Source: a virus. From it: 10,040 nucleotides of DNA. The stretch lies in the UHGV virus genome UHGV-0351092, one strand, 5' to 3'. How positions within the stretch are numbered: position 1 is the first letter of the stretch; the number at the start of each line of letters is the position of its first letter. A program made the translations under genes and the position numbers. Below, one piece after another: positions 5,670-10,040 of the stretch. The notes beneath the pieces were generated by a model. That model did no database searches. It had not been told where the DNA came from and worked only from the letters and a program-made list of their open reading frames with translations.

Positions 5670-7080
5670 ACAGTGGGCGCACATCATCACCGTCAATAGC
5701 GATTACGCCGTCACCTTCCAGCTTGTACAGCCAGCGCCGGAAGTTTTTCATCTCATACCCCAGCTTTTTCATGTCATCGCGCAACAACGGAATAGTGCAT
5801 TTATCTCCGCGTTGCGTGCGTGAACGGATACAGCCCCATAGTGCGGCGTGATTCTCCGTCTTGTTCCCGGCTTCCTCGATGCGATCCAGTTCAACTGGCG
5901 GACGGGGCTTATCCTCCAGCACCAACGACGTGATTAACTCCCCGCCTTCATCCTTGAAAAGCTCAACCTCGCGCAAATCGCAAGCCATTTCTTTCAATTC
6001 CTCCGCATCCTTCATCTTGGTACATGCGATAACCAGGGCTTCACTGCCTGCACCTTCACGGCGTATCCGGTACTCTGCATCCAGTGCTGCACGAAACGCA
6101 CTGGAACCGCGCGCACCCTTTGTTTCGTCCTTGCCGGAATGGTGAATTACCAGCACTGTAGCGCCTGTACGCCGTTTCAGTTCGTCACATCCATGGACAA
6201 ATGCCCCCATATCCCGCGCATCATTTTCATCGCTGCCACCAAAGCAACGCGCCAGAGTATCCAGAATAATCATGCGTACAGGTTTACCCGTTTCCTGCTC
6301 AACCTGTCGGGCAGCAATAACCATTTCATCAACATCACTCGGTGCGGCCGGAAAAATTGGACGATTTACCAGGTACAGATTTTTCACCTGCTCACTGTTC
6401 ACCAGTTCCCATGCCTTGATACGACGAGGAACACCGATCCCGCCCTCACCAACGACATACATAACCGCACCATGTACAACCCGGCGACCTCCCCACGGGA
6501 TACCGGTAGCAACATGACATGCCCACGAACACGCAAGGAACGACTTATAAGAACCGCTCGCACCGTATGTGCTACATAGCGAATTAGCCGGAATCACGCC
6601 CTTAACTACATAGCTAAGCTGTGAATCATATCCTTCCGATCCAATGCTCATTGGTAGTGTGGTTTTTCGCTGGCTGTATTGCTCGTCAGTAAGCATTTCT
6701 TCGTGCTCTGCCTGTTCGCGGATTCGTTGCAGGTAATCGCGCCAGTTCTCCGGCTCCCGGTCGGTGATGCCTTTGTATAATTTCGCCTCCTGTACGCCAG
6801 CCAGCGCCAGTTTTTCAGCGATAGCATTGATCTGGATTGGTTCGATCTCCCCCGCGAGATAGACACGCGCAAAGCGGCGTTCATCGTCGACAATGCGGAT
6901 ATTCACCAGGTCTGCCAGTTGCTTTGGCCCCAGGTAAACAGGTGGTACGTTATCGCCGTGTTTTCGTCCTTCGCTTTCAATCCAGTGTTGAGCATGGGAG
7001 TAAGCGTCCGTCCCGGCAAAAATGATTACCTCGGTGAATTTATCCTTCGGCTGATATTTTAAATTCGGTGCGTTTTTCAC
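5668..7080 (-). CDS. replication protein: RepA/DnaB-like (RecA-fold, AAA_25-type) helicase with an N-terminal domain of unknown function
   Basis: ORF-track 470 aa. GTG start at 7080-7078 preceded by GGGAGGT with a 5-nt spacer. P-loop-like YGASGSYKSF, Walker B-like RMIILDTL, and VLVIHHSGKD typical of RepA-type helicases. Start overlaps the upstream stop as GTGA; iterons lie immediately downstream. Confidence 0.8.
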   Translation of the reverse strand: MKNAPNLKYQPKDKFTEVIIFAGTDAYSHAQHWIESEGRKHGDNVPPVYLGPKQLADLVNIRIVDDERRFARVYLAGEIEPIQINAIAEKLALAGVQEAKLYKGITDREPENWRDYLQRIREQAEHEEMLTDEQYSQRKTTLPMSIGSEGYDSQLSYVVKGVIPANSLCSTYGASGSYKSFLACSWACHVATGIPWGGRRVVHGAVMYVVGEGGIGVPRRIKAWELVNSEQVKNLYLVNRPIFPAAPSDVDEMVIAARQVEQETGKPVRMIILDTLARCFGGSDENDARDMGAFVHGCDELKRRTGATVLVIHHSGKDETKGARGSSAFRAALDAEYRIRREGAGSEALVIACTKMKDAEELKEMACDLREVELFKDEGGELITSLVLEDKPRPPVELDRIEEAGNKTENHAALWGCIRSRTQRGDKCTIPLLRDDMKKLGYEMKNFRRWLYKLEGDGVIAIDGDDVRPL

Positions 7081-7572: not shown

Positions 7573-7930
7573 GATTCACCCCCTGAATAACCTGATAACC
7601 GCAACTGGTCAGCAATTCGATAAATTCCGGCAGTGTTCCGAAACAGCAATTATCACGCATACGTTCGCGGGATACCTCAACGCCGTTTTCGTAGTGACTC
7701 ACCATGCGTCCGGTAAAATGCAGATCATCATCGTGATGGCACGTTGACGGCTTAATCAGTCGCGCACGTTCTGCCAGCTCCAGCAATGCTTCAACACTTC
7801 CGGCAATTGCACCATCCGGCAGGCGATAATTACTTACCACGCGTCCATTCTCCACATTGACCAGTAGCTGCCCGGTAAATTTCTCATCAAACTGAATGCT
7901 GTTAAGGTCAGAAATTGACAGGTTATGCAT
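7565..7930 (-). CDS. hypothetical protein (121 aa) built from two tandem copies of the same ~37-aa module
   Basis: ORF track; ATG at 7930 preceded by AGGAGGTG with a 5-nt spacer; 8-nt overlap with the upstream gene (ATGCATAA). Internal repeats EKFTGQLLVNVENGRVVSNYRL...GSVEALLEL and LHFTGRMVSHYENGVEVSRERM...GTLPEFIEL. Confidence 0.65.
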   Translation of the reverse strand: MHNLSISDLNSIQFDEKFTGQLLVNVENGRVVSNYRLPDGAIAGSVEALLELAERARLIKPSTCHHDDDLHFTGRMVSHYENGVEVSRERMRDNCCFGTLPEFIELLTSCGYQVIQGVNHG

Positions 7931-8288
7931 GGTGCACCTCCTGGCGAATACGGGCGGCGAATACCATCACGCAGCCATCAGGAGATTGCTGGCGTGCTTC
8001 CTGTTCGCTGGTGGCCTCGATGTGAATCACGCGCGGTTGTGCCGTACTCAGGGCGATAAAACGCCAGATAAAATTGTTTTCGCATTTCTGAATAAACAGC
8101 GTGTTTTCTTCGCGCCCTTTCCATGTTGCCGAGATATAGCCCATGCCATTGAGCATCTCGCAGGCATCAACCAGCGTATCAGCGGCTACGTGTACAGTGT
8201 TTTTACCGTCAGCTATGCAATCACGGTGCACCGCCAGGAAGGTGTATATAAATTTAGGGTGAGTTTGGGTATGCTGTGTTCCAGCCAT
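7923..8288 (-). CDS. hypothetical protein (121 aa); first gene of the minus-strand operon downstream of the divergent control region
   Basis: ATG at 8288-8286 preceded by GAGGT with a 7-nt spacer. Translation MAGTQHTQTHPKFIYTFLAVHRDCIADGKNTVHVAADTLVDACEMLNGMGYISATWKGREENTLFIQ... Corresponds to the C-terminal 121 aa of the 501-aa ORF-track entry, whose upstream part is antisense to the plus-strand RHH gene. No family recognised. Confidence 0.6.
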   Translation of the reverse strand: MAGTQHTQTHPKFIYTFLAVHRDCIADGKNTVHVAADTLVDACEMLNGMGYISATWKGREENTLFIQKCENNFIWRFIALSTAQPRVIHIEATSEQEARQQSPDGCVMVFAARIRQEVHHA

Positions 8289-8487
8289 AATCGTTACCTC
8301 ATTTAACGGTTTGGTTAGAAGCCCCGTTACTGCTCCAACAGTGCGGGGCTTCGTCGTTTCAATTGCTGAATTGCATGTATCAGCCCTTGTGGTATTCAGA
8401 TTACATTTTGGTGAATACCATTTCAAGTCTTTTTTGGTATTCACTTTTGTATTACACTGCATCCCGTTATTAATCGGAGGTGCAAAC
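8289..8487. promoter_or_regulatory. divergent control region with operator-like inverted repeats and a GC-rich stem-loop
   Basis: TGGTATTCA (8390-8398) and its exact reverse complement TGAATACCA (8412-8420) are separated by 13 bp; a third TGGTATTCA lies at 8436-8444. Stem-loop GAAGCCCCG (8318-8326) / CGGGGCTTC (8344-8352). Sits between the minus gene start at 8288 and the plus gene start at 8488. Promoter hexamers could not be placed reliably by eye. Confidence 0.5.
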
Positions 8488-8793
8488 ATGTCCACGAGTT
8501 CTGTTAACAATAAGTCACAGCAACTGAATGCCAGATTTCCACATGAAGTAGTGAGTGGCATTGAGGCATCCCTACAGCCAGGGGAAACTAAAGCGAATTT
8601 TATAGTTACGGCTGTACGCGGTGAGATCGCCCGCCGCCAGGCAGAAGGAAGCGGAGAAAATCCCCTGGTTTCTTCGCTCGATGCGCTGGCGCAGGTGGAA
8701 AAAATCGGAGTCAAAGCTGCCGAGGAGATCGGGCAGCTCGTCACCGTCGCACGTGAAGAACTCCAGCGCCGCAAGGCCAAAGAATCAGAATAA
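8488..8793 (+). CDS. Arc/Mnt-like ribbon-helix-helix DNA-binding protein (putative repressor), 101 aa
   Basis: ATG at 8488 preceded by GGAGGT (8476-8481) with a 6-nt spacer; TAATAA double stop at 8791-8796. N-terminus KSQQLNARFPHEVVSGIEASLQPGETKANFIVTAVRGEIARRQ aligns with the P22 Arc pattern (QFNLRWPREV...GRSVNSEIYQRV, recalled from memory). The ORF-track 8311..8793 entry is an in-frame upstream extension with no SD. Confidence 0.7.
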   Translation: MSTSSVNNKSQQLNARFPHEVVSGIEASLQPGETKANFIVTAVRGEIARRQAEGSGENPLVSSLDALAQVEKIGVKAAEEIGQLVTVAREELQRRKAKESE

Positions 8794-8850
8794 TAACTAT
8801 CATCGCCGTGGTGTGAGGAACTCCGGCGCATTGCTTTACAGGTACACAGA

Positions 8851-9030
8851 ATGACCAACAAAGAATCAACCAAAACACCATCACCAACTCGTAAGAGACG
8901 ACGCAAAAATATAGCGCATGAACATGAATCAGAAAGATTCGCACCTTGTTCGTTTGCTCTTGAGAAATTCCTTAAAGAGCACAGGAAAAAGCTCTCGTTG
9001 CAAACCTTGGAACGAACCAAATCTGACTGA
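8851..9030 (+). CDS. possible small basic protein (59 aa), weakly supported
   Basis: ATG at 8851 with only a weak AGGT 4 nt upstream; translation MTNKESTKTPSPTRKRRRKNIAHEHESERFAPCSFALEKFLKEHRKKLSLQTLERTKSD; TGA at 9028-9030. Below the ORF-track cutoff. Confidence 0.3.
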   Translation: MTNKESTKTPSPTRKRRRKNIAHEHESERFAPCSFALEKFLKEHRKKLSLQTLERTKSD

Positions 9031-9033
9031 TCA

Positions 9034-9428
9034 CATTGCCCACCAGCCGCAAATGTGGCATTGTTGGTGATGCGTTCAAGTATGTAGCTTTTCCACTGGC
9101 GGCTCTCTACGGTCGCCTTTGTTTTATCCAGAACGAAATCAGACATCAGATTGATCAGCACCTGGCGACCTGACAAAATCGCATCAGTCGCGCCACCAGC
9201 AAAATTTTTTGCTTTCCGGACGGCGTGACCAACGGCATTTTGCAGCAAAATATTCTGCATTTCTGGCGTGCTGTAGTAACGGTGATCAGCGCCTTCACTC
9301 TGTGCGACCACAACGCTATAATCTGCCTCGTAGACAGTAAGCAATATGGCGCAGTAGGCTATTCGTTCACAAAGGCGCTCCGGCAACGGGGCGCTTTCTC
9401 TTTTTGTAACGGTCAGAGCGTTACACAT
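9034..9428 (-). CDS. candidate gene with a strong start but no in-frame stop (3' boundary approximate); possibly frameshifted or disrupted
   Basis: ATG at 9428-9426 preceded by GGAGGA with an 8-nt spacer; overlaps the antirepressor stop as ATGTGTAA. First ~130 aa look protein-like (...AKNFAGGATDAILSGRQVLINLMSDFVLDKTKATVESRQWKSYILERITNNATFAAGG). Beyond ~9040 the frame stays open to 7923 with Ser/Cys/Arg-rich antisense-type composition. A TGA exists at 9031-9033 but in another frame. Confidence 0.3.
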
Positions 9429-10040
9429 GGCTGTTTTCCTCCATGCGACGGGCTAACCAACGCTGCGAAAGACGAATTAATTCAGCCTTCCGCTGGTGGT
9501 AGTCCTGGCCTAACTCAATCAGCGTGATATTGCTCTGCTCAAGGTAAGAAAGGTGCTCAAGCTGCAACGTGCTCATGTGGTCGCGTGGTTCGCCTGTAAT
9601 GCCGTTCGCCAGTGCCCACTGTTTTGCAGTCATGCCACCCAGCACGATACGCGCCAGCATGTTCGCTTCCGTGGTGTAGTGGTGCTGGAGTGTGTTTTTA
9701 CCCAGTTCAGCCCGGTACGCCTCCAGCGCGGCACACATTGGCTTAAAGTAGCTGGCAACTGTGATACGGGCTTTCAGTTCCCGGCGTAACGCTGCGGAAC
9801 GAACAGGCGCAACCTTGTGTAGCTCCTCCTCGCATTTGATAAAGTACTGGCGAACGGCGCGGCCCTGTTCGGTACGTTCGACCATCGCCAGTTCTTTCGC
9901 CATGTTCACTGTGATGATGTACTCAAGAGCGGTTTGCTGGCGAGATTTTGCGCTCACCGGATCGGGTCGGCTCAAATATTCAACAACCTCATAATCCACG
10001 CCTTCCGTGAACCCGTATTCTTCAATGCGCCCCTTGATCC
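9421..10040 (-). CDS. phage antirepressor-like protein (AntA-type domain), N-terminus beyond the window
   Basis: Frame is open from the window end (10040) to TAA at 9421-9423; the ORF-track start at 9999 is an internal GTG. Segment EGVDYEVVEYLSRPDPVSAKSRQQTALEYIITVNMAKELAMVERTEQGRAVRQYFIKCEEEL matches the AntA-type signature MAKELAMV.R...GR..R.YFI..E. Confidence 0.7.
   Translation of the reverse strand, partial: IKGRIEEYGFTEGVDYEVVEYLSRPDPVSAKSRQQTALEYIITVNMAKELAMVERTEQGRAVRQYFIKCEEELHKVAPVRSAALRRELKARITVASYFKPMCAALEAYRAELGKNTLQHHYTTEANMLARIVLGGMTAKQWALANGITGEPRDHMSTLQLEHLSYLEQSNITLIELGQDYHQRKAELIRLSQRWLARRMEENSHV

Follow-up and report, generated by a model that had tools for sequence, protein, structure and literature searches.

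The right end of the UHGV virus genome UHGV-0351092 (positions 8,488 to 10,040 of the 10,040-nt stretch analyzed here, called the window below) carries two genes: a small plus-strand gene of the YlcI/YnfO family, whose product probably has a ribbon-helix-helix (RHH) fold, and, on the minus strand, the 3' part of a gene with an AntA domain. A first-pass annotation had described the pair as an Arc/Mnt-like gene converging on an antirepressor gene at a distance of ~600 bp. The two genes do converge, with their stops 627 bp apart, and the gap between them is not empty: it is occupied by a 501-codon minus-strand open reading frame (ORF), called the bridge ORF below. We consider it reasonably probable that the window contains the regulatory core of a Gram-negative phage-inducible chromosomal island (PICI), or P4-type satellite, that this core varies the P4/PICI control region by using a protein repressor, whose gene lies antisense within an eta-like leader ORF, and that the AntA and RHH genes are independent parts, not a regulator and its target. 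The reading is built on sequence comparisons: gene identities, gene order, the covariation of RHH types with repeats, the conserved open frame and the homology of the ORF end to P4 Kil are shown by them, and repression, the promoter positions, antitermination through translation and any role of AntA are inferred. The main features are as follows.

8488-8793, plus strand: YlcI/YnfO-family gene, 101 aa, with a probable RHH N-domain at residues ~9-52 and a long C-terminal helix (the RHH gene)
9421-10040, minus strand: 3' part of the AntA-domain gene, 205 codons, running off the window end; Pfam PF08346 match
7923-9428, minus strand: eta-like bridge ORF, 501 codons; its ATG overlaps the AntA stop (cATGTGTAA)
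7923-8291, minus strand: Icd/Kil-like gene, 122 aa when read from the ATG at 8291, an in-frame internal start of the bridge ORF; NF033153, E=6e-23
8391-8399, plus strand: operator-like repeat 1 (GGTATTCAg), over the -10/+1 of the putative minus-strand promoter, at the same ATG offset as in other types
8411-8419, minus strand: operator-like repeat 2 (GGTATTCAC), inverted with respect to repeat 1, in the spacer of the putative promoter
8436-8444, plus strand: operator-like repeat 3 (GGTATTCAC), 44-52 nt upstream of the RHH ATG
8398-8426, minus strand: putative promoter of the Icd-like/replication operon (equivalent of P4 PLE), read from the sequence as TTGAAA, 17 nt, TAATCT

The YlcI/YnfO gene and its upstream repeats

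The 101-aa protein matched the NCBIfam model YlcI_YnfO_N (NF041551; Pfam DUF3950) with 60.3 bits and E=1.3e-16 (cut-off 30 bits), the match covering the N-terminal ~45 residues. These ~45 residues are what it shares with YlcI and YnfO of the E. coli K-12 cryptic prophages; unlike those two, the window protein has an extra conserved C-terminal helix of ~45 residues and is located in a satellite control region. Many family members consist of the N-domain only (55-65 aa), and ~130 homologs of ~100 aa were found in Enterobacterales. A tblastn search of phage genomes with the protein found nothing, and in the literature we found no paper giving the YlcI/YnfO family a function.

Homologs gathered from genomes and from IMG/VR made up a set of 99 RHH loci. 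In all annotated or gene-called genome loci examined, the RHH gene diverges from the Icd-like gene and the replication operon across ~190 bp; in the IMG/VR loci the same Icd-like gene is found just upstream on the opposite strand. The family alignment has a conserved pattern, in which a strand ending in R-V/F-P is followed by H-E/D-V, a G-E-S/T turn and FIVTA-R-EI-RR. The putative DNA-contact strand (residues 11-17) is hypervariable, and the N-termini could be sorted into 22 types. The weak matches seen in Pfam scans of the family were led by PSK_trans_fac (21 of the 30 members) and included RHH_1, TacA1 and CB_ParB_C, all of the RHH type, as well as unrelated families with similar E-values; FitA-like, also of the RHH type, was weakly matched by Mnt only. 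Global hhalign comparisons gave P=0.007 against Arc, 0.042 against CopG and ~0.8 for helix-turn-helix controls. From these comparisons, an RHH fold of the 101-aa protein is probable.

Sequence searches of the PDB with the RHH protein returned spurious or weak helix-hairpin-helix-like matches only (DNA polymerase beta; Hef, E=0.027), the match to Hef being that of LDALAQVEKIGVKAAEEI in the C-terminal half. Residues 52-101 (window 8640-8790) were predicted to form one long helix, with the predicted local distance difference test (pLDDT) reaching 93, and are missing from the short family members. This modeled helix may mediate oligomerization for cooperative binding to repeats spaced ~22 bp.

Upstream of the RHH gene, each RHH type pairs with its own repeat of 8-10 nt, and in nearly all types the repeats are at offsets of ~-98, -76, -53 and -30 from the RHH ATG. 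Identical strand motifs pair with identical repeats across genera, and different motifs pair with different repeats, as in the following types.

Strand motif QQLNARFP (window): repeat GGTATTCAC; E. coli-type loci
Strand motif KQISIRIP: repeat CTGAATCACA; E. coli
Strand motif QSLTARIP: repeat GTCTTACA; E. coli, Klebsiella, Enterobacter
Strand motif QLTTVRVP: repeat GAAACACAC; E. coli, Xenorhabdus, Photorhabdus
Strand motif QQINARFP (one residue off the window type): repeat GGGATTCA; Phytobacter

In the window, the repeat cluster was found at 8391-8444 only, and no type-specific repeats were found near the alpA/antA upstream region of relatives. We think it very probable that the RHH protein binds the type-specific repeats. 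It is also probable, with less certainty, that the protein represses its own promoter as well as the local one of the replication operon, which would make it a protein immunity determinant; the position of repeat 3 would suit autoregulation. A promoter scan of a Photorhabdus locus (L016) found the minus-strand site TTGACG-17-TAATAT at -62 to -90 from the RHH ATG, the same offset as that of the putative promoter in the window.

An antitoxin whose partner is the basic 59-aa ORF 3' of the gene in E. coli (8851-9030), or a centromere-binding protein of the ParG/omega type, would agree with weak profile matches of the RHH protein to VapB, TacA and ParB-C type RHH families. However, weak matches of this kind are expected of any RHH domain, the repeats are at promoter positions between divergent genes, and the 59-aa ORF has no family match and is absent from Klebsiella, Photorhabdus and many other loci that keep the RHH gene. 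We regard such a role as highly improbable and keep to a repressor. The other features around the gene are listed here.

8851-9030, plus strand: basic 59-aa ORF, doubtful, called by PGAP in some E. coli relatives 3' of the RHH gene
9098-9126, plus strand: terminator-like hairpin and T-run, at which the RHH transcript likely ends
9372-9407, plus strand: second terminator-like hairpin, an 11-bp stem followed by CTCTTTTTGT, just before the AntA 3' end
8319-8353: conserved GC-rich hairpin in two tiers, located between the operators and the Icd-like ATG, with conserved GGTTAGA and CGTCGTTT on its flanks

A similar plus-strand terminator was found downstream of the RHH gene in Photorhabdus L016. We also observed a promoter-like plus-strand site, TTCACT-17-TATAAT (10 of 12 matches), at 9294-9322, ~50 nt before the 9372-9407 hairpin. 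An RNA of ~75 nt running from this site to that hairpin, antisense to the bridge-ORF start, was considered and rejected, with the promoter count at chance level (2 found versus 2.3 expected); more simply, the two terminators are ends of the RHH transcript.

The 8319-8353 hairpin was kept in 14 of the 14 aligned types, with compensatory changes. In the minus-strand alignment, two of the stem pairs have A-C or C-A cells (in L005, L008 and L016); on the plus strand these would be G-U wobbles, which suggests that the hairpin acts in a plus-strand RNA. Such an RNA, were it to start inside the Icd-like gene, would be antisense to the ribosome-binding site of that gene. No plus-strand promoter for such an RNA was found.

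The bridge ORF and the Icd/Kil-like gene

From the AntA stop, the bridge ORF crosses, in antisense, the small plus-strand ORF, then the RHH gene and the operator region, and it shares its stop, at 7923, with the Icd-like gene. Its C-terminus matched NF033153 with E=1.5e-21, and the P4 eta/kil ORF matched the same family with E=1.4e-20. The Icd-like gene is the first gene of the replication operon; 68% of its substitutions are at codon position 3, and its N-terminus, MAGTQHTQTHPKF, is conserved in Photorhabdus and resembles P4 Kil. In near-identical islands, the annotated length of the Icd-like coding sequence is 222, 121 or 73 aa (L001 9924-10592; L003 7367-7732; L004 6924-7145).

The bridge frame was open across the whole RHH gene in 96 of the 99 loci, and it extended at least 150 nt past the RHH start in 95. 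Among the 59 distinct RHH genes, 58 left the frame open, compared to ~20% expected with random synonymous codons and the RHH protein fixed; no tyrosine was encoded by 56 of the 59. The spacers upstream of the RHH gene fell into 11 classes with no detectable mutual similarity, and the frame was open across all of them, a result that by construction says only that the open stretch reaches the preceding gene. Shuffled spacers were open with probabilities from below 0.0003 to 0.25. Among the architectures derived from genomes, the spacing between the stop of the preceding gene and the first ATG of the frame ranged from an overlap of 7 nt to a gap of 15 nt, while the preceding gene itself varied (AntA, Bro-N, a 310-aa protein or AlpA itself). 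The share of substitutions at third positions was 25% in the first 133 bridge codons and 32% in the intergenic part, with no excess. Apparently, the frame is conserved and its product is not.

Two other origins of such a long frame have to be considered, and we find them improbable. The frame could be an accident of antisense composition, given that its wobble positions are common with those of the RHH gene and stops are for this reason rarer than in random sequence. Against this are the numbers of open loci and open genes given above, the coupling of the start to the preceding gene, the outcome for shuffled spacers and the precedent of P4. The frame could also be a long protein whose sequence matters, and a gene caller did call an equivalent ORF of 290 aa in a Serratia locus; but the spacer classes are unrelated between genera, and the non-overlapping parts show no position-3 excess. 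The ORF is usually left uncalled; the Serratia call is at 4803-5675 of L106, and in the sister contig of that locus the opposite-strand DUF3950 gene was called instead.

On balance, and by analogy with P4, we lean toward the bridge ORF being a translated leader that would carry the helper-induced alpA-antA transcript over the RHH gene into the replication operon. A search of the minus-strand RNA for a rut-like C-rich bias gave nothing clear.

The island and its AntA-domain gene

The right-end 3 kb of the window was present, by megablast, in 1532 of 5426 complete E. coli genomes, and near full length in 47. Relatives with int, alpA and a tRNA site had 94-97% DNA identity over the matched parts (88-92% of the 3-kb query). 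In the annotated E. coli relatives, which are inserted at tRNA-Gly or tRNA-Thr, the order along the minus strand of the window is tRNA, integrase, a hypothetical gene, AlpA (PF05930, E=2e-19), AntA and ~400 bp without annotation, followed by an opposite-strand small ORF with the YlcI/YnfO gene and then by the Icd-like gene. After the latter come at least two small ORFs, DUF4222, a primase or RepA-type helicase, ProQ/FinO, PerC and DUF2213. The same core, with other genes or none in the AntA slot, was observed in Klebsiella, Serratia, Enterobacter, Xenorhabdus, Photorhabdus and Phytobacter. The window itself contains the helicase (AAA_25, E=4e-44), DUF4222, ~10 CCTCACTTTT iterons, ProQ, PerC and DUF2213; int, alpA and the tRNA site are known from the relatives, alpA being just beyond the window.

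5280-5670: AT-rich iteron region directly 3' of the RepA-type helicase gene, with ~10 CCTCACTTTT copies in both orientations

This stretch, which includes a near-perfect 40-nt palindrome at 5574-5613, is by its sequence very likely the replication origin of the island. The element has, then, the sequence features of a Gram-negative PICI: an integrase with AlpA, a replication module whose origin has iterons, a tRNA site and a small size, without a complete set of phage genes. Induction by helper phage and packaging have been shown for the relatives EcCIMP1 (PMC11773190) and EcCICFT073 (PMC6092414), and AlpA is the helper-induced activator of Gram-negative PICIs (PMC6092414, PMC11773190). These PICIs are organized in four zones, Integration, Bro, Replication and Late (PMC10111431), a layout that the window relatives follow. 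Both EcCICFT073 and EcCIMP1 share with the window element tRNA integration, int with alpA, a Bro-zone gene, a replication module, PerC and late genes. EcCIMP1 also has an AntA/AntB gene after alpA; it differs from the window element in having isrK and C4 RNA and no RHH gene. For the cf-PICIs of Enterobacter, one list of accessory genes includes AntA/AntB, YlcI/YnfO and Icd (PMC13612085). No role is given to the YlcI/YnfO gene in these PICI papers (PMC6092414, PMC11773190, PMC10111431, PMC13612085), and antisense nesting is not mentioned in them.

The AntA protein of the window, truncated as it is, matched PF08346 with 48.8 bits (E=1.1e-12; gathering score 27 bits). Database proteins identical over its 205 residues are 266 aa in full length. 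The profile search with a full-length, 99.5% identical copy from an E. coli locus (L003) gave 82.9 bits and E=2.4e-23, which confirmed the AntA assignment made in the first-pass annotation. Codon position 3 accounts for 74% of the substitutions in the gene, and in relatives the AlpA gene (PF05930) is directly upstream of it. For the full-length protein, AlphaFold2 (AF2) predicted a winged-helix-like N-domain of strand plus helix and a C-domain made up of helices (pLDDT 75.6); the sole significant PDB matches of this model were to the DNA-binding protein DdrC (E ~2e-6), with low TM-scores of 0.34-0.42.

We found AntA adjoining the RHH gene in only 24 of the 76 informative RHH loci, while 52 have no AntA. 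Conversely, AntA occurs with no RHH gene in EcCIMP1 and in one Salmonella island, and elsewhere the AntA slot has Bro-N or nothing. An RHH protein 100% identical to that of the window is encoded, with no adjoining AntA, in one IMG/VR locus (L020, IMGVR_UViG_2718217885_000003); the Bro-zone slot can therefore differ between islands that share a repressor type. The AntA gene is best described, from these occurrences, as interchangeable Bro-zone cargo that follows alpA and would be expressed early from the alpA operon, and the AntA and RHH genes are neighbors because of the island architecture. AntA as an antagonist of the island's own RHH protein was considered and is disfavored, AntA being present also in RNA-immunity islands with no RHH gene.

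A role compatible with this description is that of a true antirepressor directed, like P4 epsilon, at the repressor of a helper prophage. The family name and the position in an early induced operon point that way, the first-pass annotation raised a similar idea, and induction of helpers by P4 and by a mycobacterial satellite is described in PMC12822802. The name, however, comes from annotation only, as does the label 'antirepressor' with which the AntA/AntB gene of EcCIMP1 is drawn (PMC11773190). Moreover, the P22 Ant and P1 Ant1 proteins used for comparison belong to other families, the predicted fold resembles the DNA-binding DdrC, and, according to section 20 of PMC10111431, satellite Bro-network proteins such as CapR can be DNA-binding repressors. 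We hold an antirepressor role of AntA to be doubtful.

Several further elements were seen in the islands. The Rfam int-alpA RNA motif (RF02996, 39-50 bits) is located in relatives just 3' of the integrase gene and ahead of the hypothetical ORF upstream of alpA, in a part that is beyond the window.

RF02996 motif sites: L001 13564-13631; L003 11009-11076; L004 10588-10655; L015 4504-4572; L016 8326-8394

In the window, two tandem hairpins at 4300-4376 on the minus strand, the second with a U-run, are ~4 to 80 nt 3' of the stop of the PerC-family ORF (4376-4378). They gave weak Rfam matches to unrelated terminator-like families (ncr1175, Thr_leader) and are probably an intrinsic terminator.

P22, P1 and P4 as precedents

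The layout was described in the first-pass annotation as unlike immI of P22 (mnt, arc, sar, ant), and the convergence of the genes, with no co-transcription, bears this out. The accompanying statement that the protein classes are those of immI was not supported by the comparison. P22 Ant matched P22_AR_N (PF10547, 1e-44) and P22_AR_C (PF10548, 1e-31), and the window-type AntA protein matched neither. Similarly, P1 Ant1 and KilA matched ANT/KilAC (PF03374, ~1e-30), a family with no match in the window-type protein, whose BLASTP E-values were 29 against P22 Ant and 0.21 against P1 Ant1. As there is no homology to P22 Ant or P1 Ant1, 'antirepressor' is here a family label. P22 Arc and Mnt matched the Pfam Arc family (PF03869) with ~1e-30, while no match to it was found in the 84 scanned members of the RHH family (30 + 54), and the profile comparison (hhalign) gave a probability of 7% for Arc and 0.9% for Mnt. 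A search for sar RNA in the window gave a best match of 16.8 bits, at 8318-8353, compared to the gathering score of 43.

What remains common to the window and P22 immI is a small RHH-type regulator and an 'antirepressor' gene within 1 kb, and opposing transcription in the control logic. The differences are that the proteins are non-homologous, that arc and ant are co-transcribed in P22 and their counterparts here are not, that the operators here are off the ant promoter, that sar RNA is present in P22 and absent here, and that one region belongs to a phage and the other to a satellite.

A derepression circuit like that of immI, in which an Arc/Mnt-like RHH protein controls an antirepressor that inactivates a repressor, was implied by the first-pass annotation. 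The two nominal protein classes are present and adjacent, and convergent RHH transcripts could interfere with the antA operon, with two plus-strand terminator-like sites between the genes. Still, the proteins lack homology to P22 Ant, Arc and Mnt, the RHH-specific repeats are beyond the far side of the RHH gene with none upstream of alpA/antA, no sar-like RNA was found, and each of the two genes occurs in loci that lack the other. We consider such a circuit quite improbable. The suggestion of a differently wired switch linked to a helper was right in spirit, and the element is probably a helper-dependent satellite; the derepression circuit of the immI kind is the part that was not supported.

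The immI region of P1 (c4 RNA, icd, ant1/ant2) shares with the window the Icd-like protein, by alignment. It differs in that the order is reversed, the window 'antirepressor' preceding Icd, in that Ant1 is an ANT/KilAC and not an AntA protein, and in that the window has no c4 RNA. In P1, C4 repression of icd/ant leads to Rho-dependent termination before ant. In the annotation of the P1 record, icd is apparently required for ant expression, and C4 RNA represses icd/ant translation.

The P4 immunity and eta-kil region is a closer precedent than P22 immI. In P4, as in the window relatives, a long ORF comes after an AlpA-family gene and has its start at or over the stop of the gene before it: the P4 ORF (8812 to 8168) has its first codons within the 3' end of vis/ORF88, an AlpA homolog, and its last 65 codons are Kil. 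In both elements the end of the long ORF (65 codons in P4, 122 in the window) is a Kil/Icd-like protein also translated from an internal start, the local promoter of the replication operon, putative in the window, is within the long ORF, and primase or helicase genes are downstream. The window ORF from 9428 to 7923 has the sequence features of a P4-type eta/kil leader. On the other hand, the P4 long ORF has ~199-214 codons compared to 501 in the window, the immunity factor of P4 is a same-strand RNA whereas the window has an opposite-strand protein gene with its own operators, and the window, unlike P4, has Bro-zone genes, here AntA, inserted between alpA and the long ORF. Translation of P4 eta, as described in section 20 of PMC10111431, prevents termination of transcripts from the upstream late promoter, with read-through into the replication genes as the result.

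As a positive control, the P4 CI RNA was recognized as Rfam C4 with 74.9 bits and its target as isrK with 60.8 bits, both inside eta. In the window neither C4 nor isrK had a match even at E<=10. Both EcCIMP1 and the Salmonella island, which have AntA and no RHH gene, have isrK and C4. In an early sample, C4 was present in 0 of 13 RHH loci and in 3 of 3 RHH-less loci. The RHH gene was found in 0 of 80 sampled loci with the C4 pattern. The RHH gene as a strict replacement of the CI/C4 RNA was nevertheless rejected: isrK and C4 are present in 10 of the 99 RHH loci. In the C4-bearing RHH loci, Rfam placed isrK and C4 within that same long ORF, at sites downstream of the promoter on the RHH side. 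The two immunity modules are negatively associated and stackable, not strict alternatives.

For example, in the composite locus L054 one minus-strand ORF of 464 codons (3250-4644) spans the RHH gene in antisense, isrK, C4 and two Icd-like segments, the first N-terminal and the second complete.

Other composite loci, with protein and RNA immunity modules stacked: L026, L038, L039, L055, L065, L088, L090, L095, L097

In EcCIMP1 (L110), an eta-like ORF of 355 codons (16141-17208), with its ATG overlapping the DUF4222 stop, spans isrK and C4. This ORF is out of frame with the Icd-like gene and stops at the start of the next gene; PGAP has an 'ash family' pseudogene there.

For the window, the following course of events may be proposed. 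On the minus strand, the helper-inducible alpA operon would run into the AntA gene, and translation would continue from the AntA stop into the coupled bridge ORF, the counterpart of P4 eta, with its last 122 codons being Icd/Kil-like. If the P4 analogy holds, ribosomes on the bridge ORF would protect the transcript from Rho-dependent termination, so that it would read into the replication operon (the icd-like gene, two small ORFs, DUF4222, the RepA-type helicase and the iteron origin). The RHH repressor would bind its type-specific repeats, three to four of them, in the interval that separates the RHH and Icd-like starts. Bound there, it would switch off the promoter from which the replication operon is locally transcribed, the equivalent of P4 PLE, would regulate itself and would act as the protein immunity determinant of the island. 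Induced read-through from the alpA side would bypass the repression and run head-on into RHH transcription.

A number of observations weigh against this interpretation. The AF2 monomer of the RHH protein (pLDDT 75.8) has a low-confidence helix at residues 8-14 where a strand is expected, Foldseek found no match for this monomer in the PDB, and the profile matches of the RHH family are all weak. The minus-strand promoter of the window has 8 of 12 consensus positions, which is under the scanner threshold. C4 was detected by covariance model in a tenth of the RHH loci (10/99). The first 133 bridge codons show no protein-type constraint, which fits a leader and also a non-translated region; the bridge frame shares wobble positions with the RHH frame, which makes a part of its persistence cheap; and related loci are non-independent samples.

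A wider proposal, tentative when all of its parts are taken jointly, is that the YlcI/YnfO-type RHH protein is the repressor and immunity determinant of a large class of Gram-negative PICIs, with at least ten mutually specific types of repressor and operator, and that its gene is situated antisense inside a translated leader ORF. The leader frame would be kept open by selection on the repressor codons and residues (absence of tyrosine; restricted codon choice before His and Gln). Induction would then be ribosome-protected read-through from the alpA operon, bypassing repressor expression and colliding with it, and in most islands the protein module would occupy the place of the P4 CI RNA.

In practical terms, annotation pipelines are inconsistent in this region, and the label 'antirepressor' should not be taken as homology to P22 Ant or P1 Ant1. 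Whether Gram-negative PICIs have a repressor was called unclear in their founding paper (PMC6092414). An RHH protein whose putative DNA-contact residues covary with promoter repeats is a concrete and testable candidate for a PICI repressor. If this role is true, an operator specific to each type would explain how related islands are regulated independently in one cell. A repressor gene placed antisense in a leader that must stay translatable would put an unusual double constraint on one stretch of DNA, and the eta/kil mechanism of P4 would be extended from RNA immunity to protein immunity.

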